A stretch of 64,000 bases of DNA, from contig OZ316892.1 in the NCBI GenBank assembly GCA_973895155.1, positions 10,862,320-10,926,319 of the forward strand. Direction: 5' to 3'. Shown piece by piece: positions 29,735 to 58,905 of the stretch (position 1 is the first letter of the stretch; the number at the start of each line of letters is the position of its first letter). The notes under the pieces were generated by a model, which saw nothing but the letters and a program-made list of their open reading frames with translations, did not search any database and was not told where the DNA came from. The stretch is from Marsupella aquatica. Its lineage: Eukaryota > Plantae > Marchantiophyta. The translations under genes and the position numbers were made by a program.

Positions 29735-30366
29735 TCATCCGGTCCCGGCCCGAGTAAATCCGGTCCCGGCCTGAGTACTCCCGGTCCTCTTCCCTCCCGG
29801 CCCCGGACCCTAAACTTCCCCCGGCCCGGACCCTTCACCCTCCCGGCCCGGACCCTAACGCCCCCCCCCCCCGCCCCGGACCCTTCACCCTCCCGACCTG
29901 GACCCTAAAGCCCCCCCCCGCCCCGGACCCTAAAGCCCTCCCGGCCCGGACCCTAAAGGCCCCCGCCCGGCCCGGACCCTAAAGCCCTCCCCCCGGCCCG
30001 GACCCTAAAGCCCCCCCCGGCCCGGACCCTAAAGCTCCCCCCCCCTCCCTCCCCGGACCCTAAAGCCCCCCCCGGCCCGGACCCTAAAGCTCCCACCCCT
30101 CCCACCCCGGACCCTAAAGCCCCCCCCCGGCCCGGACCCCCCCTCCCGGCCCGGACCCTAAAGCCCCCCCCTCCGCCCCGGTCCCTAAAGCCCCCCCGGC
30201 CCGGGCCCACCATGAGGGACCGGGTCGGGCGGGGGTGGGCCGGGCCGGGCCGGGCCGGGGGGGCTTTAGGGTTAGGTCGCGAGGAGGGCAGCCGCCGGGG
30301 GGGATCGGGCTCGGCCACCCGGGGTCGGCTCGCGAGGTGGGGTGGGGGGATGAGTCCGGGACCGGG
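29735..30366. repeat. Left subterminal array of the hAT element (CCGGACCCTAAAGCCCC units, then a G-rich segment)
   Basis: More than 10 degenerate CCCGGACCCTAAAG(C)n units; extreme GC content. Confidence 0.9.
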
Positions 30367-35048: not shown

Positions 35049-36998
35049 TCAAGGTTGTGACGAAAAGTGCCTTGTGTTATTGTTCTCATTTTCTTGCAAC
35101 TGTCGATCAAATTGAAATTGTCTTGTCATCCATTGGACCGGATCTGCGCTATGATATTCTTGAAATGCCCCAACACGGGCATGTATGCTTGATGTGTATG
35201 GATTTGTCATGTTCTGTCTTTCATACATATTTTGTGTTGGAGAAGCATGTTGTCCCCACTGTGCATCATCAGGTTGCGCAAACAAAGTTGATGTTATTCT
35301 CTCAGGACAGAGCTCCGATGCAGCACCTCGTCGTTGAAATAAGTACGAAGTACTTGCTTGGACATCATTTTGTAGATTCAATGTTGGGTATGTGAAGGAT
35401 GGGTTTGGTTGGGAAGACACTACAAAGTTTGCATCAAATGAGTAGTCCTCGTCATCCTGAATTTGAGACTCATCGATTGTAGGGAACATCATTAAATCCA
35501 TTTCATCTTCCCATTCTCCGACATCACTTATTTCAGTATCTGGTGGAATACGAGTCAACATGTCACTATCAGTGTGTAATGATAATCCTTGCAAAGCCTC
35601 ATCTGCGTCATCAATTGTATCAAAATCCTTCACGTCATCCTCTCCAAGAGCTGCACATGTAACACCATGTTGTTTAGTGTGACATCCTTCTATGGAAGTA
35701 GGCCTCGGGCCATCATTTGTTGCTGTTATTTCATCATATCGTCTATACATAGACGTATGAGGGTTTCTCACCTTCGTGAGCCCTTTTTGCACCCTCGAAT
35801 TTGTGAATACAAAAACCAAGTCTTTTGCCCAATCATTGGTCAACCTATTACGGCTTTTTGAATGGATAAAGCCGTACGAACTCCAATTTCGTTCGCATGA
35901 AGATGCACATATTTGTTGATGCGTGATTCTTCTCGCCATCAATCTTAGCTCCGCGTAATCAGCTCCATACAAATGCCACCATTCTCCTGGACTTAATTTT
36001 CCAATATTTGATTGTGCTCCTCTAATTGCAACCGATGAATTTGGCAATTTTTGAGCCTCAAATGCCTGCATTTGGATGTCAGAAATAAGTGTCGTCACAT
36101 CTCGATCATGGTTGATTCCTGCCTTCACCTTGTGTTCTGCATATCTACGAACATAATCATTGAAGCTTCTATACAGTTCTGCATCTCCTGCCACATCTTC
36201 ATCTTCATCGAAGAAAAATTGAGGATTCAGATATGCTGCTGCTAACATGAAATCAGTAGTAAGTGATTTTTGTCGTTCCATATACACTTTCATTATCTTT
36301 GGTTTTAAGTAATCTGTTACTAATGTACAACCCTCCATGCTCGCCTCCAGTTTAGCTATTCCTTTTTTCAAGCTCCAATATAGCCAAGGAGATTGTGGTG
36401 AAACTCCATCGAATTCTCGCAACATCTTCACCAACGGCAGAAAAAAGCAACTGTAGATTTTACTTGAGCCCAAAATGTATCTTGCTGTATCCACGATTTA
36501 AGTTCGTCTGCCTTTCCCCTCGTCATATGCCCCTGTGACTTTGGTCGAACTGGCAGACGATCACGATAGGATTGCCATTTATCATCAGTGACCATTTGTT
36601 GTAAAGCTCCTCTTAGCTCCAATGCTCTCTGCGCCATTAAAAAATTTGTTGCAAATCTCGTTGCATTTGGATTTAACATCTTCCTGTCACCAGATTTCCT
36701 CACAAATATTGCAGACAACTTTTGTGATGATGTAACTGCTTTAACTATCCATCTCAAGTGCTTAAAAATCATTTTGAATGGATTTTTTTCTGCTCATCTA
36801 GCACAACATTCTTGTGGCCACACATGTCTTCTAGCAACAAATTAAAAACGTGGGCAGCACACCAACTTCATGTCACATGCGGATATTTTTTCATGACTAT
36901 CTCTTCACCTGCTACACGATTTGCAGGCGCCCCATCGGTAACAATTTGTATGATGTGATCGGCGCCAATGTCATCTATGTATTTTAACCACATGTCAC
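35049..36998 (-). pseudogene. hAT transposase, central and C-terminal part (DUF659-like/RNaseH-like core and hATC dimerisation domain)
   Basis: Motifs QIVTDGA, WCAAHVFNLLLED, PNATRFATNF, AAYLNP, EWWHLYG...ASSCERNWSSYGFIHSKSRNRL. One internal stop, a frameshift near 36440-36490, and interruption by the copia at 36999. Confidence 0.93.
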
Positions 36999-37343
36999 TG
37001 TTAGATATTGCTCTAGTCTTGTGACTCATGAGCTAACTACAGTTAGGCTAACTCGGGTTAGGACTTAGCTAATGTTAGCGGTAGTGCTGTTGTGTATATA
37101 GCCAGGGCTGATGCCAGACCCTGGTGGAACTTAGGCTCATTGTTACGGAGCTAGTTGAGAGATAGGGAGAGCTTGTGCTGTGGATGCTTGGTATGGCCGG
37201 TCGGCCTAGAGTGCAGTAAAGCTCTTGTGTGTTCCCGTGGACGTAGCCTCATGCAGAGGTGAACCACGTATCTCTCTGTGTCGACTATTGTGCGTTGGAG
37301 GGGTTCATGGGCTTGCCGTTACGAATGTCGTCAATGCTCAACA
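36999..37343 (+). repeat. 5' LTR of the nested copia
   Basis: 345 bp, nearly identical to 52917-53260 and 58906-59249. Confidence 0.96.
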
Positions 37344-38824
37344 AGTGGTATCAGAGCATGCCTGGGAGGTGACGAGGTTTTTTCGTGACAGGTTTTTTTT
37401 TCCAGCGTTCATTGTCGATGGTACATTCAGAGTTTCATCGCATGAAACTCGAATGTGTGTGGCTGAGCGGATAGGTTAGTGAGAGGGTTTTCTAACGGTG
37501 GTTAGAACTCGCTGATCGGTATCCGTGGTGCGGAGGAATTCAAATTTGCGTCATTCAGGTTTTATTCGTGTTTGACAGCTTTTCGGGGGAGAGACCAGAG
37601 ATCGCGTTCTTCAACGGTCTGAGCTATGCGGTGCGGGAGGGATCGCACATTATAGCTCAAGTTGAAGGTTGAAGCGAGCTGGTCATTTCAGTAGCTGGAT
37701 TGCTGCCGAGTTGTAACCGAGTGCGACATGATGAGTGAGGGAGGCGTTCAGGGTTTTTTCACAAGCTATGGAGCTTGTTCACATCTGAACCGGGTTTCTC
37801 TTCGTGACGTTCGACTCGGTGGAAGAGATGTGAAGTGCCACGGCTCAACGGATTGATCGCGGTGAGGCGGTCGTTTTGAGTCCGGGATTGGTACTTGACG
37901 CGGAGTGAAGGCGACGCGGTGGAATTAATTTACTCTGTTGGAACAGCAGAATGTGCCGGTGATATTCGGCCACTTTCCCCATCGGCGGTGGTCACTTTCC
38001 TCAAGCAAACGGCAAGGCAAGAGTATCATTTTTGCTTTGGGTGGCAGTTTTGTTTTAGGTTACTATAGTGTGATTTTTTTGTGTGTATACACACGTAGTA
38101 AACTAAATTTTTTTGGGGGGCCTTTCGCCCTTCGCCCGAGCGCCCCTTGTATTGCCGTCAGCCGCGAAGCGGCTGTGCCCTTCCGGCTCCCTCCTATCTC
38201 GCCGGACCAGTACCCCAGCTGCGTACGCAGCCGTATTTTCACACGAGTGAACCTCCTGTGTACCTCGGCATTGTACCCGGCCCTTATACCGAGTATTTTT
38301 TGGTAAGGGGCCTTTGCACCCCCTTTTGGGTGCTTTTTTATTTCCTTCTTTTCCTTCCCTTTTGTTCTCCTTGTCACGGGACCTGCCGCCCTCCGATTTA
38401 ACCGCTCCGATAGGGGGAACGGCCCCCTGTGAGACCTGTCGGACTGTGCGGGAATATTCCCGAAAAACAGAGAGCTGTTTTTCGGTCGTCCGGCAAAGAT
38501 TCTGTCCGCCGAACGGTAACTTTTTTGGTTCTTTTTTGGTGAGGAGGTTGCCACTGGAGTTAGCAACGTGGCGCACCGATCACATCACGATTCCGATGAC
38601 GGGTTATACTGGGTATTTTGGTTATTCTCCGAGGTGGTCAAAATGGGGGAGTTTCCCAAGGTTTTACCCACCCCGACCGAAATTTGAATAACTTTTCCGT
38701 CGAATTTTGATTTTGATTTCGGCTTTCAGTATTGGACTCCTAGCTTCGTGGGCTACGCGGCGATGTTGAGTTTTGAGTTTTGTGAGAAGTTTCAAAAAAA
38801 GACGTTTTTTCGTGATTGTTTTAT

Positions 38825-41800
38825 ATGAGTGACTCGGAGGATACTGGAAGAATTGGCGTCGGTGGAGCTTCAGGATCGCGACGTTCAGGCGGAGAGTCTG
38901 AGGAGGAGCTGCTACCGTTTGAGGAGGAACAAGTAATACCGGTACGATCACCGGTGCAACGTGCAGTGGAGGAAGCTGTACTACTACCAGAGCTGTCGGT
39001 AGTGGGGAAGAAGAGGCAGATGGCTAGATTTGGAGGAGTGAAGTTTGAGGTGGAGAAGTATGATGGTCGTACTGATTACTTGTTGTGGGAGAAGCAAGTG
39101 AAGGGTGTTCTTCGGGCCATGGGCTTAGCTCATCTGCTTTCTTCGCGAGAGCAATATGATGGAGAAGAGGAGATCTTAGAGAAGCAGTGGAGACAGGAGC
39201 AGGTGATTGTTGTCAATGCAGTGATGCTATATCTCAAGCCGCACATCATCAAGCAGCTGGATGATTATGCGGATTGCGCGTCACTGTTCAAGGTTCTTAG
39301 AGAGAAGTACTACCGGGAATATGCGTCAGACCGGCTGTACAAGAAGTCTCTCTTGATGAGCCTCAGGCTCAAGGAATGGAGCAAGATGCAGGATCACCTG
39401 GATGAGTTTGACAGTCTAGCGATGGATCTGTCAAACCTGGGAAAAGGAGTTGAAGATGAGGATAAGGCCTTGCTTCTGCTAAGCTCCTTACCGCCGTCAT
39501 ATCAGGGCTTGAAACAGGTGCTCTTGTATAGAGATCTAAAGTCCATTTTGTATAATGAGGTGGTGAGCTCCTTGCTGTTTGATGATGTTCAAAAGAAGCT
39601 GGGTCAATCACAGACAACATCTTCTTCTGGCACTGCGTTGAATGTGAACCGTGGAAGAGCAGCACAGCGCACGAATGGGCAGAACAGGTTTAGATCTACA
39701 TCACGGGGGAGATCTAAATCCAAAGGAAAATTGGAAGAGAGGAAGCCTCTTGCATGTTGGAATTGTGGCAAGCCAGGCCACATGAAAAGGGATTGTCGAG
39801 TAAAGAACCCTACTGCATCTGCTAACGCGGCATCGAGCTCGCATGAGGTAGATTTACTCGATGATGATGACATATTGTGATGTCAAGGTTATGCTCTCAA
39901 CGTAGTGTCAAATCCAGAGAGTGATGACTGGATTCTAGATAGTGCATGTACTTTTCACATTTGCTCTAGGAGAGATTTTTTCAGTTCTTACACGGATTCC
40001 AACGGGTCAGTGTTGATGGGAAATGGAATCCCATGTCAAGTTGTTGAACTTGGATCTGTAAGATTTCAGATGTTTGACGGTGCTGTGAGAACGTTGAGGA
40101 ATGTGAGACATATTCCCAGCATGATGAAAAATCTCATTTCACTTGGAGTTTTAGAAGCAAATGGCCATCAGTGGAGTTCTGCTAATGGTGTCCTTCAGGT
40201 TTCAACTGGTACTAAAGTTGTATTGAAGGGAAAGAGACATAGCAATCTATACATTTTGGAGGGCTGTGGAGTTTGTGATGAAGCCAATGTAACCTTATCT
40301 CATGAGGAGACGGCCCGGCTGTGGCACTTCCGTTTGGGCCACATGAGTGAAAAAGGTTTGGTTATTCTTCAGAAGAAAGGATTACTTTCTAATTTGCAAT
40401 CTTGTAAGTTGGAATTTTGTGAGCACTGTGTGCTAGGGAAGCAGCACAGGAAACCCTTCGGAGTTGGAACTCACACCAACAAGGAGATACTTGAGTATGT
40501 ACATAGTGATGTGTGGGGTCCAGCCCCTACTCCCTCACATTCTGGATGATTATACTATGTCATGTTAATAGACGATTACTCAAGGTATGTGTGGATATAT
40601 TTTATACACAGTAAGTCTGATGTTTTTGCCACTTTTAAGGAGTGGAAAGCCCAAGTTGAGAATCAGACTGGTAATAAGGTGAGATATCTACGATCGGATA
40701 ATGGCGGTGAATATAGTTTCGGGGAATTTAGAACGTATTGTAAGGATCAAGGGATAACCCACCATCTCACAACAAGTTATACTCCTCAGCAGAACGGTGT
40801 TTATGAGAGACTCAACCAAACACTGTTGGACCGCTCGAGGAGTATGATGAGTCAATCATGCTTACCACATGAGTTTTGGGCTGAAGCTGTCAACACTGCA
40901 GCTTATTTGGTAAATTTTTCTCCATCCAGTTCTATTGGATTCAAGACACCATATGAAATGAGGTACATGCGTCCAGCAGATTATTCATATCTGAGGATTT
41001 TTGGATGTGATGCTTATGTGCTTACACCTTCCCAGCTTCGATCCAAGCTGGAGTCCAAGTCGAAGAAGTGCATATTCCTTGGCTATCAGAAAGGTGTGAA
41101 GGGTTATAGGTTATGGGATCCAGTAACCTGTAAACTAATTGTCAGTAGAGATGTGTCCTTTAATGAGTCCAGATCATCAAAGGAGGGGGAGAGTTCTCAG
41201 GACTCCCATACTGACAAGGGGAAATCTCCCATCCCGGACCCGGTTGAGGGGGAGATTAGTCATGATGCAGTTCATGACAGGAGAGATGGAGAAGCTCCGG
41301 GCTTGGAGCTGGTTCCTGCGATGGAACAAGAGGAGCAGATTGTTGCTAGGGTACCTCAAATTCAACCAGCAACAATAGCAGATCAGCCTGAGTCATCTAC
41401 TAGAAGAACTTCCAGTCGTTCTACTAGAGCTCCTACCAGGTATGGTCAATGGGCAGACTCATCTAAGCTAGATGATATTGACATTGCACCTGATGATGAT
41501 GACATGACTTTGATCTTGGAAGAAGGAGAGCCTTCTTCGTACAGTGAGGCTTGTGCTTCAGAGCAGAAGCATGAGTGGAATGCAGCAATGCAGAGGGAGT
41601 TGCAATCTTTGAGTGACAACAAGACATGGGAGCTGGTGGAGCTTCCAAGAGGTCAGCAAGTGGTGGAAAGCAAGTGGATTTACAAGTTGAAGGACAGTCC
41701 TTCAGAGGGTGGAGATAAGATCTACAAGGCAAGGCTTGTTGCCAAGGGGTTCACTCAGAAGAAAGGAGTGGACTACAATGAGGTCTTTTCACCGGTGGCT

Positions 41801-42757
41801 AAGTATTCCACAATTCGGATCTTGTGTCAGCTTGTTGTGTTTTTTAATCTGGTGATGGATCAGATGGATGTTGTTACTGCTTTTCTCTATGGCAACTTGG
41901 AAGAGATGATCTTCATGAGACAACCACTAGGCTTTATGAAGAAGGGCCAAGAGAACTTAGTTTGCAGATTGCTCAAATACTTGTATGGATTGAAGCAATC
42001 TCCCAGACAGTGGAACAAGCGGTTTGATGATTTCATGCTTGCTCAAGGTTTTACAAGGATGGTGTATGATCCTTGTGTGTATACGAAATCAGTCAAGAAT
42101 GATGTATTTGGTTTCATCATTCTGGTGATCTATGTGGATGACATGCTGATTGTGGCTAAAGATCAATCTGAGGTTGACAATCTCAAGGCGAAATTGAGTG
42201 CTGAATTCAGGATGAAGGATCTTGGTAAGGCCAAAAGGATCTTAGGGATGGAGATTTTTAGGAACTCTGATACTGGACAGTTGTGCTTGAGTCAAGGCCA
42301 GTATGCGAGGAAAGTACTTGCACGATTCAACATGGAAAACTGTAAGCCAGTGAGTATTCCTTTAGCTTCACATTTTAAGTTATCATCGGCTTTCTCTCCT
42401 ACGGATTCTGTGGAGAAAGGTTTGATGGCTAAGATTCCTTATGAGAAGGCAGTAGGTAGTCTGATGTATTTGATGACTTGTATTAGGCCTGACTTGGCCC
42501 TAGCGATGGGCAAGGTTAGCAGATTCATGTCAAATCCAGGGAAGGTACATTGGGAAGCTGTGAAGTGGATTCTCAGGTATCTGAAGGGTACACAGGACTA
42601 TGGATTACTATTTGATAACAGATCAGATAGAACGTTAGTTGGCTATGTAGATTCTGACTATGGAGGCTGTCTGGATACAAGGAGGTCTACAACTAGGTTT
42701 GTATACACTCTTGGAGGAGGATGTATCAGTTGGAAATCTACCTTGCAGAAGTGCATT
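38825..42757 (+). pseudogene. Copia gag-pol (gag, zinc knuckle, PR, GAG-pre-integrase, INT, RT, start of RNaseH)
   Basis: Motifs KFEVEKYDG, CWNCGKPGHMKRDC, WILDSACTFH, LWHFRLGH, HSDVWGP, LRSDNGGEY, YKARLVAKG, YVDDML. One frame with in-frame TGAs at 39878 and 40547; cut by the CACTA at SWKSTLQKCI. Confidence 0.95.
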
Positions 42758-43402
42758 CACTACAACACTACCGACCCCTTTTGCGAACCCCGTCCCATCG
42801 CAACTAACAAAGGACCAAATTATGAAATTCTGGCGTTTGCGAAACGCTACGCATCGTAACTCTTTCGCATTCTTTGAAACCCACAGCTTCACAATCGGAC
42901 TTTCGCAACCCCTTCGCAACACCTTCGCACACTGCGAAACTTATTTTATCGCACATAAATCACATTTATGCGATCTCGACAGACTCTTTATCGGTTTGCG
43001 ACGCGCTCTGAACTATAACTTATTTGCGAAGCTGTTGTCTTGACAATTCCGTTGCCATTCATATTGTATCGCATAACTGCATCAGTCAGGGTGTCGCACA
43101 ATTGCGGAACCAAAAGTATCGCAATGTTCCAATAATCAATGTATGGCAAGTTTGTGATAGTATGGCGTTCGCATGTGTTTCGCAAGGATAGTTTGAGGGC
43201 TTGGTTTTGTATATTTGGGTTCATAATTGGGTTGGGGTCTTATTTCTCCACATGAAGATACCAAAGCAAAACTTTATATATGCCAAAAATCCCTGAATGT
43301 ACAAAAATTAGGGTTTTCTAAAACCCTATGGGGTATCAAATACCAAGACACTGTCCTTTGACTAATCCATATGCCATACGGAGTGAACTACATCTGCATC
43401 CT

Positions 43403-45428
43403 CTAGAATGGAGCCCGCCTACTCCTCTTTGCTGGCCTCTTCCCCTTGTCCTTCTTGCTTTGGGCGGGACGAGCTGGACGGGAGGGGGGTGGTGGTGGTG
43501 GTGGCGGTGGTGGTGGTGCCTGCTGCTCCTCCCCATCTGGCTCATCCTCATCATTGTCATCATCCTCATCATCATCCTCCTGGTCTCCTGGTGTGCTAGG
43601 TGTGGCAGCACTCCCTGCCCCTCTAGACCCACTCGTGGTGGCCCCGGTAGTGTCCCCATCATCAGCGCCGCTATCCTCCTCACTGCTATCCTCACTCCCC
43701 TCCTGCTCCTCCTTATCCTGCTTCCATGTCACAAGGTTAATTCGGGTTTAGGGTTAATAGGAAAAATGTATAAACCTTATAAATGGAATGGGTGCGGGTT
43801 TAGAAGGGTACTACAAATCACTCACACTAGCCAACTCTGCATCAACCAACTCAAAGAGATGTCTGGCCCCATGCTCTGCCCCTATCTCCATCTCCTTTGT
43901 TGTTATCTTGCGGCGGTACCTCTTATACTACCACAAAAAAATGAAACACCAAAACATAAGGGGCCCGGGTTAGTAACTAAGGGTACTTAAGCAAAAAAGG
44001 AATCCTAAAAAGGGTAAAAAGGGTACCCTAACCAGAAAAAACCCCATTACCCTAACAAACAAGCTTTGCGAAACTCCCACCTTCGCAAATTCAAATATAT
44101 TTAAGTTTGCGAAATAGACTGCGAATTGGATTGCCTCGCAATGGCTTCGCAAACCTTACGGGAAAAAGGTTATAATAGAGTTTGCGAAACAATTGCGAGG
44201 CAACCCGCTTCGCAATTGTTTCGCAAATTGTGCTTTTAAAAAAATCCGAGAAATGGCTAAGGCACGCAATGTGTCAGGGTGACCTAAAATGAAAGGGGAG
44301 GCCATAAGGGGTAAAGCAGAGGTCTGCAAGGGGCATTGCAGGCAAGCAAACAACAATTGAAGGCGAAGGAAAAGAAGCAGGGGAGGAGGGGAGAGGACTC
44401 ACGAAGGTTGCTTTCAGGTCGGGAAGTCCACCTTGCCCCATCTTGTGTGTGGTCTTGGGGCGTTTGCTGACTCGGTCTGCTGCAAGGATGAACTTCTGGG
44501 GTGGTGTCCCCACTTCATCCACGATGTGCTGCAGCTGAGAGACCTTCTCAGCCAATGCCTTGAGGTCTTTGTCTGACTTCCCGGCCTGAAGTGCCTTGGC
44601 CTCCTTCTCCTTCCAGAATTGGAGGTCCTTGGTTGCTTTCAGCTGCACCTCGACCTTATAGAACGCGTTCCACACATCCTCTGTGAATTGCACTGGCCTC
44701 CTCACGTTCCTGTACTCCTGCAAGCTTGCCAGGTAGGCCCTCACCTTCCTCCTATCATGGTATCGTGCTTGAGACATTGAATTCGAAATTCTATTTGTAA
44801 GCCACTGGTCATCAATCTCTGCTCCATTTCTGAATGAATCTTTGACCTGAGTCATTACTTTCCTCTGCTCTGCTCTGCTTAGTTTCCCCCACTCAACACC
44901 TCGTGCAAAGCTAGTCCTCACAGCAAGCCTGATAGTGCTCTTTGCCCCAATGTAGGCCAACTCAGTAGGAATGCCCTCAACCAAGGCAATCAATGGCAGC
45001 TTCTTCCTCTCTTCCTCCTTTTTCCACTGCGCCTCACGTTGTGCTCGAATCTCATCTCGTTCCTCCCTTCTCCTCTTCTTTTCGAGGGCTGCAGGAGAGA
45101 GTACTCCTGCCTTAGCCCTCTCCTCCTTCTTTCGTTTATTCTCTCTGGCCTTCTCCTCAGCTACAGCCTTTGCCTCTTTCTCCCTCTGAGCCTACCCTGC
45201 TGCAACCCCGGTTTGCAAAGCTTGCCCTAGAATTGCACTCAAAGAAGCAATCCCAGCTGGTGTACTCAAATCCAAATGGCTCAGCTGTGTGGCATTGAGA
45301 TGCTCGGCCATCAAATTCGTCCATTGATTACTCTCCTCATTCCTGTTCCCTCCATTGCCATTGCCACTCCCACTCCCACTCCCACTTGCCCCTGCCCCAT
45401 CCCCTCCACGCCCTCCACTAGAATCCAT
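43403..45428 (-). CDS. CACTA ORF2/TnpA-like gene, divergently transcribed, 3 exons (~480 aa) with one premature TAG
   Basis: Exons 45428-44403, 43927-43826 and 43717-43403 have GT-AG boundaries, all phase 0; TAG at 45192-45194. Contains a charged coiled-coil, HKMGQGG (resembling the H..G..G motif of En/Spm ORF2 proteins) and an acidic, poly-Pro, basic tail. Confidence 0.6.
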
Positions 45429-46794
45429 AGCTATCCAACACCAAGCGCGCACAAGCTCTCCTCCTGCCCTCCCTCACTTCAAAAAACGTCGAATGGGCCT
45501 TGTAACCCGGCGGGAAGGTCCGAATGCCCAGACAAAACACATTTGCGACGCAGTCCACATCGCAATTTGCGAATCAGCCCGCTTCGCAACTAGTATCTCA
45601 ACTTTCCAAAACCAATGCGAAACCACACGCTTCGCAAAGCCTTCGCAAAGCTGCAGACACGCGAAAAAATGCTCTCGGGCTCTGTTTTTCTGAAGCTATT
45701 GCGAAACATTTTGCTTCGCAAATAATGTGACCAAATTCTGAAGCAGGTTGCAAAGCAGGTCGGTTCTCAATATCGTGGCAATTCCTGGCGAATTTTTTTT
45801 TCACATTCTTTCCCTCCTCCTTTTGTTTAGGCCATGTAAGTTATACTATGCCCTTTTGTGTAATTAAGAAATTCCACCGTTTCAAATCCCGGCGTTTGTT
45901 AGGGTTGGGTCTTGGATGAAGCTGGTTTTTTTAGGGGTTAAAAGCGAGATTACCAGTCAAACATTCCGTTTTTTAAGCTATACATGGTGTGGGTGTAGGC
46001 TAATTTTGATAAGAGTTGGGTTTTGGTTTAAAATTAATAAGTGAGGAAAGGGTTTAGGATTAAAGTTGGGTTTGGGTTTAGGGTTTAAGTCTTTAATTTT
46101 GGGTTTAAGCAGGGTTTGCATTTGTGGTTGTAGGCTTTTAGGGTTCAAGCAAGGGTTTAGGGTTTAAAACAAAAGAGAGGAAGGGGATTGGGAGTGAGGG
46201 TCTAGGTTTTTGTAATAGGTCAGAGGTTTGGGGGTGAGGGTTTGGAAAAGGCAAAGCAAGGTTAGATGAGATTAATGTTTTAGTTGTTTTACCATGGGTT
46301 TTATGGGTTTTAATGGGTTTTATGGATCTTTTGGGTTTTAATGGTTTTTCCATGGGTTTTATGCTAACAAAGGAGGAGGAGCTATGACAACTTGCAGGGT
46401 GCGGCACTTTTGCATGAATTGATACTAGCTAATGCGTATGCATCGTATGAGCCCGGGCATCTGGAGGTACGGACTAAAATAGATGGGTCTAGTTAGGCTT
46501 ATTCATGTAATTAAAATTTTTGGTTCCCACTATCTATAAAGAGGACATGTATGTAAGGTGTTCGCTTTGTGTACTTGCAGCTTTTCTCATACTTCCAGAT
46601 TCGGTTCATTATTTTAGAGCCACAAGACCTATTGGCACCGCTGAGCCTGGGTCTCAGAAAGATATTTTTTAGTGTTCCTTTTGTGTTTGGTTTCATGTCA
46701 TCATTACTTGAGAACTTACATTTGTCCAGCTTGATATTGTGATGTTATTTGGTAATAACCCCTAACTTGCAAATTATACATCTTTGTAGGGGCA

Positions 46795-47945
46795 ATGTCT
46801 TCATCTTCTAAGATCTCCACCACAGATTCTTCCTCCTCCGATGAAGATATACCACCTCCTCCTCAACCTCACACGACTGCACCTCCTCCTCGTGGTCCAC
46901 CCCGTCAGCTTTGCCAATGTGCCAAATGCGTGGGTCAGGTTTCCCAAAAGTCCTATATATGCACCCAGCATATTGAGAGATATGGACGTTACGGACGTCA
47001 TACAACAGGGGCTTCCTCATCCCATGTGGTAAGTGTTTACGCCTTAGTTTCTACCCTATTTCCACATTGCAATGGTGAAGGTTTTTAATTTCACACCTCT
47101 TGTTGTTTGTTTTGGTTTGGGTGGAATAGGTATCTAGTAGGCCTAGACCTGCGGCATCAGCACCTTATGTCCCATCACAAGGTGTTCTAGATGCTATAGG
47201 CAATGCATTCTCACAAGCCTTGGGTCTAGCAACAACCCCCTCCAGTCCTAGGGCAGTTGGGGGTGAGCCTGTTGTCCCAAGAGGGAGAAAGCGTTCCAAG
47301 AGACGGCCCCGAGGGGATACTGATTTGTACAAGGCAGTGGTTACCGGTAGGTGGGGTGATTGTGAGTTTACTGGCAGATGTGTTCCTATCATCAAGGACT
47401 GGGATCCCCAGACTCTTGGTTTGCCACAAGAGCTTTCCTATGGTGAGGAGGTAGAGGTTTGGGGAAGACGTTGGGTTATCAAACCTTCCACACTTGGGGA
47501 TAGACATGGCTATGGAGTTTTTGCTTGTGAAGACATCATTGTGGATACCGAGAGTGGTAGTGGTGGACGCGGTCGAGAAGGACCTACGTTGTTTCCTTAT
47601 GGTGGACCCATCTACAAGAGAAGACATTGGAACATGATCCTTGCACAACATCCTGAGTGGAAGACTTATGCCTTGGAGTTAGATACTTTTGATGGAAACA
47701 CTAGGAGGTATAGTGAGGAGCGGGTGATAGATGGGGACCCCATACGAACTGGGTATATAGCTGGTTTCATAAACAGTACTGTGGGGACTCGCCCCAAGCG
47801 TAGGCAAAATTGTGAGTGGGTTTTCATTGAGGGTCCTCCACCAGCCCCTTATGGCCAGACATATCATCATGACCATTGTCTGGTTGTAGCTACTAGGACC
47901 ATTCACTCAGGTGATGAGTTGTTTACTCACTATGTGTGGGATTAG
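46795..47945 (+). CDS. Transposon-encoded zinc-knuckle plus SET-domain protein (349 aa; exons 46795-47028 and 47130-47945)
   Basis: Exon 1 has CQCAKC-x13-HIERYG (CACTA transposase-associated type). Donor GTG/GTAAGT and acceptor AATAG are phase 0. SET motifs: IKPS..GYGVFA..DI, FPYGG, YAL, IDG, GFINS...NC, VVATRTIHSGDELFTHY. NLS-like RGRKRSKRRPR. No stops or frameshifts. Confidence 0.82.
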
Positions 47946-50900
47946 AAAATGACCATACACATGGCGTTTGGCCACATTTTGTATTTACACCAGTACCGAT
48001 ATTATTTCATGTTTACACACCCCCATATATTCTTCTACATGTTGTAACTATTTGCTTTGTAACTTTCAATTGTTTGCATTGTTTTTAGAATGTGCGACCC
48101 TCTCAAAATATGTTACCGCGGAGATTGAGAGCAGCATATCGGGAAATGGGTATGCCAGAAGAAGGACAAGGCTCTGAGTCACATTCCTCATCAAGTGACA
48201 GTGGAAGCAACAACCCTGATTGCAATGTACCCAGAACATATGAACAGGTTATTGATGACCAAGATAGAGCCATGGATGATTTTATGGTTGATTGGTTTGG
48301 TGTTGACGTCCCTGGTGATGATGCTGAGGTGTCTGCTGATCAAGGAGGTCATGTGCCCCCCAATGATCCACGACCAAGACATACCCCCAAGGGACAGCGC
48401 CAATGGGAGGAAGCAGAGGAACATGCCCGAACTCCTATCTATGAGGGTGCTCGTTTGAGTCATCTTTCTGCTATCTTGGGGTTGATGAATCTACAGGCCA
48501 AACACAAGGCAAGCAATGCCTTGTTATCTGATATGTTTGCACTTTGCAATGACCTTATGTTACCTTCTGGCAATGTGTTGCCAGGAACTTGGAAGGAGGC
48601 CAAGCGTGTTCTCTCATCAATTGGCATGGAATATCATATCATTCATGCATGTGTGAATGATTGCATGTTATTTCATGGGGCCGATGAGAAGAAGACACAG
48701 TGTACTGAATGTCATGAGCCACGGTATGACCCCAACATGATTACAAAGAAGGTGCCAAGAAAAGCTGTTCGTTGGTTTCCCATCATTCCTTGGTTGTTGC
48801 ACATGTACAGGTGTTCTAATTTGGCAGAGTTGATGGTATGGCATAAGACTCATCGATCAAAGCCTGGTGTTATGCGGTTGCCAATTGACTCTCCTGCAGT
48901 CAAACATATTGAGGAAACATGGCCAGACTTTGCACATGATCCTCGTCATGTGAGGTTGGGATTGGCATCTGATGGGGTTAGTCCTCATGCCCTTGGAGGC
49001 AAGGGAAGACCTACATCAGTTTGGCCTATGGTTGTGATGAATTATAACCTTCCACCATGGCTATCCATGAAGAAGGGGTTCCTCTTGCTGTCTTTGATTA
49101 TTCCAGGTCCAAAAAAGGTGAAAAACTTTGACACTTATTTGGCACTATTGATTGGAGAACTCCAAAAACTGTGGGGTGGAGTGTGGGCATATGATGGCAG
49201 GAAAAATACAGGAGGCATTCCACGTGTATTTAAATTGAGAGGGGTAGTTTGTTGGACAATGCATGACTATCCTGGTAAGATGACTTTTTGACCATATGCC
49301 ACCCTTCTTTGATATGCTCTTTAATATACTTGTTTGTCATGTGACAACCCTAACATTTAGTCTGGTTTTATTTTTGGTGTAACCAGGGTTTGGCTTTGTC
49401 TCTGGATTGCAAACTCAGGGGTACAAAGCTTGCTCCACCTGTGGTCCACAATTGCAAGATATGGCAATTTGGTCCCCATGGCTTAGGAAGATTGTTTACA
49501 TTGGGCATACAAAGTTTCTTCCAATGGGGCATGAGATGAGGTCTGACCCACTTTTATTTTCCTCCTTTGACATGCCCCTTAGTGATATGCGGGAAATTCC
49601 GGAACCAACAACTTTTGGGCATTGGAAGTCACTAGCTGATAGGGTGGCAGACCCTGATGATCCCCTCACCTTTGATGGTACTGGGTTGACGAGGTGGAGT
49701 ATACTAGCCAGTTTGCCCTATTGGTCAGAGTTGAAGATCCGCCATCTTTTAGACCCCATGCACATAGAGGGAAATGTGGGGAAGGCGTTGATAGCTCATT
49801 TTTATGGGGAGAAGGACACTAACTTCAGGGAGGCATGTGAAGAGTTGGAAATGCATCCAGATGTATGGGTACAAGTTGATCCTGCCACAGGTTTGGAACA
49901 TCGTCCTTCTGCTCCTTGGGTGCTTAGTGTTGGCCAAAGATGTGAATTCCGGAATCGTATAGGGGAGATGCAATTTCCTACAGGCTATGGTGCCAATTTG
50001 AGGAAAGCTTTTGGGATGGAGGACAATCACAAATGGCCACGGTATCTCAAGACACATGACTATCACCGCTTATTGCAGCATATATTGCCAGTGGCAATTA
50101 TAGGGTTGGGGATCAAAGAAGTGCAAGATGCCATTTGGTCATTGGGTCGTTTGTTGAGATGGATATGCTCAAAGGAGATATATGTGGAAGAGATTCCTGG
50201 AATGGAGGTATTGGCAGCTGAGGTGGTTTGCAAGTTGGAGAAGGCCCTCCCTCCTTCCTTCTTTGATTGTCAGGTTCATTTACTTGTGCATCTTGTGAGG
50301 GAGGTTGCCATTGCTGGTCCAGTTCATTGTCGATGGATGTACTGGCTTGAGCGTTACATGTCAGTCTTGAAGGCTTATGTACGTAACCGTGCACGAGTGG
50401 AGGGAAGCATAGCTACAGGATACTTGGCTGCAGAGAGCATGTTTTATTGTAGTAACATCTTGGCCACCATTGATCGGACTTTACCACGTACTTGGATGGA
50501 GGAGAGGCAAGAGGAGGAGGACCGTTTAACAGGAGCAACAAAAACACGCATGCTTACATCAACAGAGTGGACACAGTTGAATACATTCATGTTGAGTAAT
50601 AGCAATGTCATGGATGAATGGAGGGAGTTTTATGACAATGCCAAAAGAATGAGTCAAAGGGCAAGGATTTTTCCTAAGTTGCATGAGTTTATGAAGGAAA
50701 AGTTGGTTGAGTTGGATGGCATTTTGGCACAAGGAGGAGATGTCTCACAGTTTCCTACTATGACAAATGACATTCGGACCATTGTTCATGGCCCTTTGAG
50801 AGTGGTAACATCCAAGACGGCCATGTGGACCCAAGGGAGACACTTCAGGTTTCACTAGTTCCTAACCTTGTTTTCCATATTCATGTACTACTACTTAAGA

Positions 50901-51506
50901 TATAGTAATCATTTTACTTAAGATAAGTGTGTTTTTCTCTTTTGGTATGAAAGGTTCCTCATAACATGATTAGTGTTTTTTGTGTAGTAGTAACAATATA
51001 TGGGTCTTGTTAATTTCAGGATTTCTTCCCTTGATGAGAAGAGGGCTCGTACTTTTGATTGTGGAGTTCAAGGGCAGTTTTGTCAGGACTCCCGGAGTAG
51101 CCGACATGACAGGAACATTGTTCGTGATGTTGTGCCACACTATGGGAAGATAGAGGAGATTTTGGTGGTCTCATATGACAACCAATCTAAGTTTGAGGAG
51201 TATGTCTTCAAGTGCAAGTGGTTCAAAGTGAACCTTGTTGGTAATAATCGCACTGTACTCCAAGATGAGAGTGGGTTTACACGGTTGAGGACAAGTGCCA
51301 CTAGTTTTCAAGCATCTCATTGGCAAACGTCAGAGCCATTTACTTTCCCATCTCACTTGGAGCAATGTTTCTACGTTCCATACCCCTTAGACCCAGAGTG
51401 GTCACTTGTCATCACATATGTGCCACGGTCTCGTTCCATTGTTTCAGACAAGCCAGACACTATTTTTGTGTCAGATGTAGAGGACATTGAAGGTGACCAA
51501 GTGTGA
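46795..51506 (+). CDS. CACTA TnpD-like transposase (Transposase_21 plus DUF4218/DUF4216-like regions), apparently intact, ~1122 aa
   Basis: Exons 46795-47028 (shared, inferred), 48089-49274, 49387-50848 and 51020-51506 have GT-AG boundaries and consistent phase. Motifs IHACVNDCMLF, RHVRLGLASDG, YNLPPW, MHDYPG, LDPMHIEGNV, LKTHDYH, GPVHCRWMY, FKCKWF. Confidence 0.92.
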
Positions 51507-52364
51507 GAGACACTTATGGATATTTAAACCAAAAATCTATATCATGGATTGTTCATGTTGTTTCTTAATTAATATTTCATACACCATTAGTGTGGTAGGT
51601 ATTTTCATTTTGGACTCCTACTTTCAAAAGAGGTCATGCATATAAGTGACATGGGTACTCCCTCCCTTATCCCTCCTCCCTCTTTGAACCCAAACTCTCC
51701 TTCCTCTTCCAAAAACTCCATAGCTTTTTCTCCTCCCTCCCTCTTCGCTAAAGTCTCTCCTATTTTTAGTAAACCCTCTTTGGACTCCCTTCTTCCTCCG
51801 TCCCTCATCCACCTTCCAACTCCCTTCCTCCCTCTTTCACCTTTCACCTCCCTCCCTCCTCCTCCCCCATTCAAACTCTAACCTAGATGCACACACAAGT
51901 CTAACATAAACGTTTGCGAACTGTTTGCGAAACTAAACAAATCCCAACCAAATCGCAATTCTGCCATTTAAACCGTTTCTCAATTATTCCATACTATACG
52001 CTTCACTATTTTGCGATATCCAGACCATCCCACCTTTACCATCCATATTGTTTCGCACATTTGCCATACAAACCCATCGCAAATTGTTTGAAGCTAACCT
52101 TTTCGCAAACATCCTCCAATCCTAATTGTTTTGCATCATTAATGTTACCGTGGTTTCGGACTTTCGGAGCAGTCGCGGAGCCTTCGTAATGTGTTTTGTA
52201 ATCTCTGTAGTTTCGCAAACTATTGTGATACAATAAAGTTTGCAAAATGTTTGCGATGCAAATTGCGATGCGTATTGAGTCATCAACGGTTTGAAGCATC
52301 TGGAATCGCAAACGTGTGTCCGGACTCAAATGAGCTTCGCAAAAGGGCAAAATATGTTGTAGTG

Positions 52365-52709
52365 ATATCTCAGTCTACTACAGAAGGAGAGTATGTTGCA
52401 GCAGCAGAAGCAGCAAAGGAAGAAATTTGGTTGGACAAGTTAATTGCGGAGATGGGTTTAGAGCATGGCAAAATGACTCTAAATTGTGATAGTCAGAGTG
52501 CTCTGCACTTGGCTGCTAACCAGGTGATGGATAGCAGGGTGAAGCACATTGATATCAGGTACCATTTTATCAGGCAAGCAGTGTCTGATAAAACTTTTGA
52601 GCTAGTCAAGATTGATGGAAAGCTCAATCCCGTTGATGCCTTTACCAAAGTGATTTCTTTGGAGAGTTTCTCAAGACATCGTGCTACTTTGCAGGTTTTG
52701 CAGTTGTAG
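52365..52709 (+). pseudogene. Copia RNaseH C-terminal part (continuation after the CACTA)
   Basis: SQSTTEGEYVAA, CDSQSALHLA, KHIDIRYHFIR, NPVDAFTK. Confidence 0.95.
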
Positions 52710-52916
52710 TGCAAGTAGAGTTATTTAACAATGTGTGACTATTTGTATATGGATTACTCATTCCTGTTTGGCTACGGCTTAGTTCTAGTTAACCCTTAGT
52801 TAACCCTTGTGGTTTTTAGGGGGAGACCTGGTTTGGTGATTGTCTAGAACTTCCCGCTGAGGATTCCATATGGTAGCATTTAGTCTAGTCCCCAAGACAA
52901 GAGTCAAGGGGGAGTT

Positions 52917-53260
52917 TGTTAGATATTGCTCTAGTCTTGTGACTCATGAGCTAACTACAATTAGGCTAACTCGGGTTAGGACTTAGCTAATGTTAGCGGT
53001 AGTGCTGTTGTGTATATAGCCAGGGCTGATGCCAGACCCTGGTGGAACTTAGGCTCATTGTTACGGAGCTAGTTGAGAGATAGGGAGAGCTTGTGCTGTG
53101 GATGCTTGGTATGGCCGGTCGGCCTAGAGTGCAGTAAAGCTCTTGTATGTTCCCATGGACGTAGCCTCATGCGGAGGTGAACCACGTATCTCTCTGTGTC
53201 GACTATTGTGCATTGGATGGTTCATGGGCTTGCCGTTACGAATGTCGTCAATGCTCAACA
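52917..53260 (+). repeat. 3' LTR of the nested copia
   Basis: 344 bp, preceded by the PPT and followed by TSD GTCAC. Confidence 0.96.
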
Positions 53261-53545
53261 GTCACCAAGATACTTCCCATCTTTCTTGTCGGCTTGTGCA
53301 GCGTTCCAACTATCCAAAAAGAAATCTCCTTTTGAACTCAACAACATGACATTCATCAAAGGTTCCCTTCGGATATTTTCCCATCCATCGGATGAAAGGG
53401 AATATCCAATAGGTTTTGCCTCCTTCATTGTTTTTGTCATGTCCTTTGTAAGATCAACTCTAGCCTCCTCCAATAATTTCATTCTCAAATTTCGCATACC
53501 CGGAAGAGAATATCCATTTACAATCCCTTTCGAGGTTTCTGTGAC
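53261..53545 (-). pseudogene. hAT transposase 5' fragment (N-terminus apparently missing)
   Basis: GYSLPGMRNLRMKLLEEAR...SLSSDGWENIRREPLMNVML...KDGKYLGD joins in frame across the TSD to MWLKYIDDIGADH at 36993. Confidence 0.9.
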
Positions 53546-53998
53546 CCGGGCCGGCCCTCTTTCCTCCCCCCACCCGGCCCTCGTCCGCCCCCTCCCCAGG
53601 CCCCCCTCCACCCGGGCCGGGCCTCCTCCCCCCCCCCACCCGGGCCTCCCTCCTCCCTGCTCCCACCCCTCCCTTCACCCGGGCCGGGCCTCCTCTCCCC
53701 CGGGCCTCCCTCCACCGGGGCCGGCCCTCCTCCCTCCCCCCACCCGGGCCTCGTCCTCCTCCCCACCCGGTCTCCTCCCCCCCCCACCCGGGCCCCCCTC
53801 CACCCGGGCCGGGCCTCCTCCCTCCCCCCACCCGGGCCCCCCTCCACCCGGGCCGGGCCTCCTCCCTCCCCCCACTCGGGCCTTCCTCCACCCGGGCCGG
53901 GCCGGGATGTAAAGCCGGGGCGTAAAGCCGGGCCGGGGCCGGGTGACGAGAGGTAAGGGGGGGGGGCCGGGCCGGGAGAAGTTCGGGCCGAGCCGGGG
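53545..53998. repeat. Right subterminal array of the hAT element (CACCCGGGCC(GGGCC)TCC units)
   Basis: More than 10 degenerate CACCCGGGCC units with C tracts, followed by a G-rich GCCGGG segment. Confidence 0.9.
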
Positions 53999-58470: not shown

Positions 58471-58905
58471 CCCAATACACACAATCCAATGGTGACCAAA
58501 ATGAGTCTATATACTGTGTTTGATGACTGGATTGTATTCCGTCCATTCAAGTTTGTAAGCACACTATGAATTTTTTGACAGGTTTACATATTATAGTAGT
58601 TGATGACAATGCACCAAAATGGGTCAGAGAAAATCCAATGATCCAGCAAGGAAATGTTGCCCCATCTAGTGCTTGTCCAGAGGGGAAGATATTTTCTTGT
58701 AGTGGATGGAGGTGGAGGTGCTGGCATAGTGATTGTAGTTGAAGATTTGAGCAAAGTAGACGACGTACCAGGACTGGACTAGCCAACTTTTATTCTTGAC
58801 TTACATTTTCCCTCCACCAACTTCAAGTGTACATTTGTTTATTGAATTGTCCTTTGAAATTGGATGCCATGAAGTTTTGATTTGTGTAAATTGGTTGTTG
58901 TTGTA

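Follow-up and report, generated by a model that had tools for sequence, protein, structure and literature searches.

The 64,000-nt stretch of DNA analyzed here (the window) comes from the liverwort Marsupella aquatica (GCA_973895155.1, contig OZ316892.1, positions 10,862,320 to 10,926,319 of the forward strand) and contains a complete CACTA (En/Spm) transposable element of 9607 bp (9.6 kb) at 42758..52364. The element has CACTA...TAGTG ends and interrupts a copia pol gene in its RNase H region. Its terminal inverted repeats, taken here with the adjoining target-site copies (42755..42767 on the plus strand and 52355..52367 on the minus strand), form a 10-bp perfect pair at 42758 and 52364 with another matching block, and the 3-bp target-site duplication reads ATT on the left and ATA on the right, with one mismatch. 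Four clusters of the repeats TTTGCGAA and TTCGCAAA lie by both ends and at two internal sites (about 42780-43190, 44065-44230, 45540-45730, and 51910-52345, within 42780..52345), and the element holds all nine TTTGCGAA copies and nine of the ten TTCGCAAA copies present in the window. A TnpD transposase with Transposase_21, DUF4218, and DUF4216 domains and the DDE, C2C, and His motifs is a further CACTA feature of the element. Between an exon that encodes a small Cys/His module and the catalytic TnpD exons lies an exon that encodes a SET domain, and it is probable, on balance, that this single unit gives rise to two proteins that share the Cys/His exon.

The exon in question, 46795..47028 on the plus strand (234 nt, 78 aa), has a Ser/Pro-rich start followed by a CxCxxC-x13-H-x4-G arrangement, here CQCAKC-x13-H-x4-G, and its 3' end reads GTG/GTAAGT, with a phase-0 donor at 47029. 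Two acceptors downstream, AATAG/47130 and TTTTAG/48089, both continue its frame. One donor thus faces two in-phase acceptors, the first of which opens an exon with its own stop, as in an alternative terminal exon. An earlier note on this DNA had described the exon, the donor, and both acceptors, and all of its coordinates are correct, as is its statement that the phase-0 donor suits either acceptor. The same donor, acceptors, and phase are found in L001, an independent metagenome contig that is about 70% identical to the window. Upstream of the exon are two conserved non-coding blocks with splice-like ends, detected by blastn to L001 (46431..46661, plus strand; 46431-46466 and 46599-46661), which are likely 5' untranslated region (UTR) exons. 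Exon 46795-47028 is therefore probably the first coding exon rather than the first exon of the unit. The second block ends AAG/AT in the window as opposed to CAG/GT in L001 (L001 271-500), and the present copy may have lost this UTR donor.

Splicing of the Cys/His exon to the SET exon (47130..47945, plus strand, 271 aa), a predicted alternative terminal exon, is very probable. The intervening intron (47029..47129, plus strand, 101 nt) has the same position and phase in L001, where an exon of 234 nt precedes a 111-nt phase-0 intron and a SET exon that is closed by a stop of its own. From AATAG/47130 the reading frame runs on from the first exon to a TAG at 47943-47945, for a total of 349 aa. 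The first in-frame Met of the SET exon is residue 169, inside the domain, and an upstream start is thus needed. Among 32 database proteins that carry the exon-end motif, 29 are joined here to the SET exon and the other three extend into the intron; the named proteins that combine exon and SET domain come from Calypogeia fissa and from Sphagnum jensenii, troendelagicum, balticum, fallax, compactum, and tenellum. The module is N-terminal to the SET domain in each of the 36 proteins having both, distant Riccia lineages included, and mosses and liverworts of two classes share the layout at identities as low as approximately 35-45%. The SET stop is followed by a spacer (47946..48088, plus strand, 143 nt, 67% AT) that contains three TGTA, ends in the TnpD acceptor, and is the predicted 3' UTR and poly(A) region of a SET transcript; AATAAA was not found within it. 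A single called protein of 423 aa on a Logan contig of 2141 nt (P0184) also contains the Cys/His module and the SET domain, and may stem from a transcript after splicing or from a form that has no intron.

The SET domain is fairly likely to be an active methyltransferase, judging from its sequence and its modeled structure. Pfam SET scores 24.4 bits, above the cut-off of 22.4, and a profile search gathered 127 SET-family representatives with a profile of 271 positions that covers SET only, the exon columns having dropped out. The AlphaFold model, built from an 83-sequence alignment, has a SET fold with a predicted local distance difference test (pLDDT) of 92 and a predicted template modeling score of 0.87; from a shallower input the pLDDT was 51. 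Foldseek matched the model to SETD8 (E 1.6e-7) and, in all, to 283 chains at E<=0.001. Searches of the PDB with a single sequence or a shallow profile gave no SET match, and a deeper alignment did. Of the solved structures, LegAS4 matches best in sequence (E 1e-7). Conserved positions include the GxG motif for S-adenosylmethionine (SAM; 64 of 71 and 71 of 72 rows), the knot Asn (75 of 83), and the terminal Tyr (67 of 71), and the stop directly after the terminal Tyr-x-Trp is retained in close relatives. Against L001, the ratio of nonsynonymous to synonymous substitution rates (dN/dS, one pair) is 0.18 for the SET core, which indicates purifying selection, and 0.09 for the Cys/His core. Viral SET structures match the model about as well as cellular ones, and no origin is therefore claimed for the domain; among viral contigs, 12 pattern matches included no relatives. 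Two Calypogeia fissa proteins of 503-506 aa (P0237 and P0312) belong to the SET family as distant members whose Cys/His-rich N-terminus is of another kind.

The second join, from exon 46795-47028 to the TnpD exon at 48089, is likely. This is suggested by the likeness of the exon to TnpD N-termini (see below), an intact 1122-aa frame, the strongest acceptor of the region, and the conservation of that acceptor. TnpD occupies three further exons on the plus strand, of which the first (48089..49274) encodes an acidic linker, the start of Transposase_21, and the first two catalytic Asp motifs, the next (49387..50848) the end of Transposase_21, DUF4218, and the catalytic Glu motif, and the last (51020..51506) DUF4216. 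TTTTAG/48089 keeps the frame open from the Cys/His exon through TnpD, while offsets of 48088, 48090, and 48091 give stops. The four-exon product is stop-free, contains the full set of D, D, E, C2C, and His motifs, and aligns over 689-1038 columns with six reference TnpDs of 1092-1134 aa. By a crude score of pyrimidine tracts, the AG at 48087-48088 ranks first among the 97 AGs between 47029 and 48400, and no change at this AG was seen in contigs of the family (four runs, contig kind unrecorded) among the best 40 of 63 rows of differences. The earlier note had proposed conservation of the acceptors as a check, and both recur in L001, where the TnpD acceptor reads ...TTCATAG/AATATG vs. ...TTTTTAG/AATGTG in the window. 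A subfamily about 86% alike also retains the TnpD acceptor, and in a more diverged subfamily likeness resumes at 48086, 24 nt ahead of the first in-frame ATG at 48110. Neither 47028^47130 nor 47028^48089 is among the best 15 of 46 joints of the family contigs.

A domain of the PF13963 type is the usual first domain of CACTA ORF1 (PMC8978399; for this and the other papers cited, statements refer to the parts of the text that were available), and the earlier note had taken the Cys/His module to be the normal TnpD N-terminus. This holds for the core of the domain only. A profile of the exon matched 34 angiosperm-type TnpD N-termini with an HHalign probability of 81.6% (E 1.1e-5), or 87.8% with distant members included, over a span of only about 32-37 columns and against a TnpD set chosen by its CxCxxC pattern. 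In control comparisons, another Cys cluster of TnpD gave 0.9% and 30 column shuffles at most 3.7%, and the TnpD exons themselves had no HHalign match to the TnpD N-terminal Cys/His domain. The module lacks the N-terminal helix and the W..HGE end of PF13963. The sequence comparisons thus support the view that the exon encodes a truncated homologue of the core of the TnpD N-terminal domain. Zinc binding by the module is probable, and it may serve to connect the SET protein with other proteins of the element. There is no support for sequence-specific DNA recognition by it, or for the description of the exon as a targeting module that binds TTTGCGAA, since what has been described as the sequence-specific DNA-binding domain in Spm is a tandem helix-turn-helix (HTH) found in TnpA-type proteins rather than a Cys/His motif of this kind (10.64898/2026.08.24.746577).

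Taken together, these observations are best accommodated by a CACTA element in which a single promoter would drive the whole unit; both splices and the poly(A) site are predicted from the sequence, phases, domains, conservation, and intact frames described above. The short product, which is very likely, would result from joining the exon to 47130 and ending the transcript in the AT-rich spacer, and would be a 349-aa protein composed of the Cys/His module, a linker, and the SET domain. The long product, which is likely, would arise when the same donor bypasses the SET exon in favor of the stronger, far acceptor at 48089, yielding the 1122-aa TnpD. A near acceptor combined with early polyadenylation would make the SET protein common and the transposase rarer. 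The SET protein would then be a SAM-dependent lysine methyltransferase kept for the element's own benefit, with histones or a chromatin protein as its target, such that silencing is eased or the element's own activity is tuned. Chromatin modification by the SET protein, as put forward in the earlier note, is plausible, and the chance that it plays a chromatin role in favor of the element falls slightly short of even. The shared-exon, two-protein design that the note had proposed agrees with sequence, phase, and conservation. A broader version, in which a bryophyte-wide CACTA switch of splicing or polyadenylation in transposase intron 1 selects between transposase and the element's own histone methyltransferase, with the zinc module guiding the enzyme to the repeats or the transposition complex and a protective chromatin mark laid on the element's own family, is rather unlikely as a whole; it would amount, in land plants, to an anti-silencing system that is enzymatic and aimed at the element itself.

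Several observations weigh against the two-protein design. The Cys/His module is truncated and not detected by Pfam PF13963, and its match to TnpD N-termini has the short span and pattern-chosen reference set noted above. The database gene models are themselves predictions, with near-identical Sphagnum copies that are not independent, and the SET acceptor falls outside the eight best AGs by the crude score. None of 14 exon matches joins the exon straight to TnpD, nor does any protein with a bryophyte-type exon in a set of 332, a test that is weak because the search for long TnpDs returned only one bryophyte-named protein among 59. An in-frame Met at TnpD codon 8 (codon 2 in L001, from six bases only) means that TnpD could be produced without the Cys/His exon. 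As for the enzyme, similar template modeling scores of 0.43-0.49 to SETD8, LegAS4, MLL1, G9a, ATXR5, and EZH2 single out no substrate class. The knot motif of SET domains is usually N-H-S. In this family N-S replaces N-H, with Ser in 78 of 83 rows and His in none of 64 matched rows, and a median of six residues after the terminal Tyr leaves little room for a post-SET region.

Some of these points can be read in other ways, and the Met at codon 8 leads directly to one of them. The Cys/His exon may belong to the SET protein only, with TnpD made either from an upstream UTR exon spliced to 48089 or from a promoter in the spacer, and started at Met 48110. The UTR-like blocks with a donor, the module being shorter than PF13963, the zero direct exon-TnpD models, and the existence of a grape TnpD without this domain (PMC8978399) all fit this arrangement. 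It is nevertheless an unlikely one, as exon and acceptor agree in phase 0, diverged copies become alike again from the acceptor and hence upstream of the Met, the 143-nt spacer offers little space for a 3' end plus a promoter, and inclusion of the exon brings the protein to a typical TnpD length. It is also conceivable that the unit encodes a single Cys/His-SET-TnpD fusion similar to SETMAR, produced either by read-through or from a donor within the SET exon. Eight database models, which represent the same SET/TnpD neighborhood in Sphagnum and Riccia, do extend from SET into TnpD, and one of them (P0043) retains the SET C-terminus. These eight join at varied places, however, mostly truncating the SET domain, and read-through would fail because SET and TnpD are not in the same frame across the spacer. 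Moreover, seven of the eight donor-like sites in the SET exon are in phase 1, one is in phase 2, and none is in phase 0, and close relatives keep the stop after the terminal Tyr-x-Trp. With its own stop, an offset frame, and no phase-0 donor-like site, a fusion of the SETMAR type was rejected for this element, and such a protein is very improbable.

The remaining alternatives concern what the SET exon does rather than how it is joined. The splicing may be as proposed and the SET protein still not be an anti-silencing histone enzyme: it could act on a non-histone target such as the element's proteins, place a repressive, self-limiting mark, or serve as a binding domain with weak catalysis. The N-S in place of N-H, the short C-terminus, and the lack of a single close histone-methyltransferase class point in this direction, as does CpG depletion, which is equal to that of copia (observed/expected CpG of 0.28-0.31 in SET-coding and TnpD DNA vs. 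0.29 in the neighboring copia) and indicates that methylation was not escaped over time. On the other hand, for all its diversity the family retains the SAM-site glycines, the Asn, and the terminal Tyr. LegAS4 also lacks the His, having Phe in its place, and yet was crystallized with a histone H3 peptide, and the capture of SET domains by several transposon lineages has been read as a counter to silencing (PMC12730594). This alternative is possible but doubtful. Finally, the exon might be a functionless host fragment, captured passively as in Pack-CACTA elements and matching in phase by chance. Capture of gene fragments is frequent in CACTA elements (PMC8978399), and the present copy has private changes, one of them at a conserved SET Asn (47754). 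The dN/dS values of both cores largely refute passive capture, and a layout common to mosses and two liverwort classes, together with a complete and confidently folded domain, also argues against it; it is most improbable. The two-protein design with a shared Cys/His exon is thus preferred.

The element also contains an accessory gene on the minus strand, divergent from the unit described above and in the position of ORF2 (44274..45473). It consists of open reading frames and in the present copy is interrupted by an in-frame stop at 45192-45194; at 45194, contigs of the family mostly carry another base. The gene encodes a charged helical region, and a second exon, acidic and rich in Pro and Lys/Arg, is probably located at 43403-43747 on the same strand. 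No Pfam, Atlas, or HHalign match was found for 44274..45473, with TnpA reaching 0.2% by HHalign, and its identity as TnpA found no support by any of these three routes. Repeat clusters lie on either side of this gene, which is a more natural candidate than the Cys/His module for binding the element's repeats. Along with the in-frame stop, a Tyr at a conserved Asn of the SET domain (47754) is private to the present copy relative to the family contigs, and these private changes suggest that the copy may be past its active life, though the TnpD frame is open.

Contigs with an empty site, which are uninterrupted copia copies, connect 42753-42757 to 52365-52368; repeated insertion of the element at one copia site had been considered and was dropped, as those joints are uninterrupted copia copies. 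The host copia spans 36996-53260, with two long terminal repeats (LTRs), at 36996 and 52914, that are 97% alike over 300 nt, and a stop at 39880 between gag and the next frame. A third related LTR copy is found at 58903 (95%), and GC-rich tandem repeats with units of the GGACCCTAAAG and CCCGGGCC types lie outside the element at 30000-30290 and 53540-53980.

The nearest named relatives of the element's proteins belong to a leafy liverwort, peat mosses, and Riccia. Five Sphagnum clusters (P0004, P0006, P0018, P0038, and P0013) have 360, 112, 168, 226, and 75 members, many of them labeled as SET-domain proteins, and these large clusters are probably copies of the present transposon cargo. Hundreds of entries named "SET domain-containing protein" in Sphagnum, Calypogeia, and Riccia are likely to be transposon cargo, one cluster at 90% identity alone having 360 members, and such entries would inflate counts of host SET genes. 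To our knowledge, the anti-silencing factors reported to date for plant transposons (TnpA and VANC) are DNA-binding proteins. If the two-protein design is correct, an element-encoded SET enzyme would represent a direct chromatin writer in land plants, present in many intact copies. The layout would also couple the dose of the SET enzyme to that of the transposase through one choice of splicing or polyadenylation, and it offers a way to study what the Cys/His domain at the TnpD N-terminus, which has received little attention, does.

Transposons that carry SET domains and alternatively spliced En/Spm elements are both known, while the nested shared-exon design and its occurrence in a land plant are apparently unreported. 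In the full-text literature, outside Repbase Reports, subscription papers, and supplements, no account was found of a SET-bearing CACTA element in land plants or of a SET exon that shares the first exon of a transposase, and the available portion of a treatment of CACTA transposase introns makes no mention of mosses (PMC4158355). Among the closest parallels is maize En/Spm, which, like Arabidopsis EN/SPM3 and EN/SPM7, makes TnpA and TnpD by alternative splicing (PMC13547354; 10.64898/2026.08.24.746577), in layouts that change fast (PMC13547354). The Marsupella element resembles these in being a CACTA element in which one unit would encode both a transposase and another protein, depending on the splice site used. 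Where En/Spm has the HTH-type TnpA, the second product here would be a SET protein; its exon precedes the catalytic ones and is predicted to end the transcript early, and the remaining accessory gene stands apart, in divergent orientation. A SET domain has been described on an element of the same superfamily, the red-algal Plavaka (EnSpm/CACTA), whose PAG2 combines an adenine methylase with a SET domain (10.1101/2025.02.11.637652). This likeness is one of description only, and PAG2 differs in that it is described as an accessory gene of its own that also encodes a DNA methylase, with no exon sharing in the available description, and in that it belongs to another lineage and host.

SET methyltransferase genes thought to counter silencing are also carried by HarbingerS and MuDR of Phytophthora (PMC12730594) and by Helitrons (10.1101/2025.02.11.637652), which share transposon-borne SET cargo with the present element but belong to other superfamilies and hosts, where the SET genes are described as accessory genes. 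VANC of VANDAL elements, an element-encoded factor that acts on its own chromatin via short repeats, is a possible functional analogue (PMC12730594; PMC13547354). Unlike the SET protein proposed here, VANC is MAIN-related, is encoded by a separate gene, and has demonstrated sequence-specific binding. A nested terminal exon that shares upstream exons is found in CSB-PGBD3, a host gene with a captured transposase. SETMAR likewise is a host gene with a captured transposase, in which SET and transposase parts are combined in one gene (PMC8616336). In contrast to both, the SET exon is here part of a mobile element, which is predicted to encode the SET domain and the catalytic core in separate proteins.

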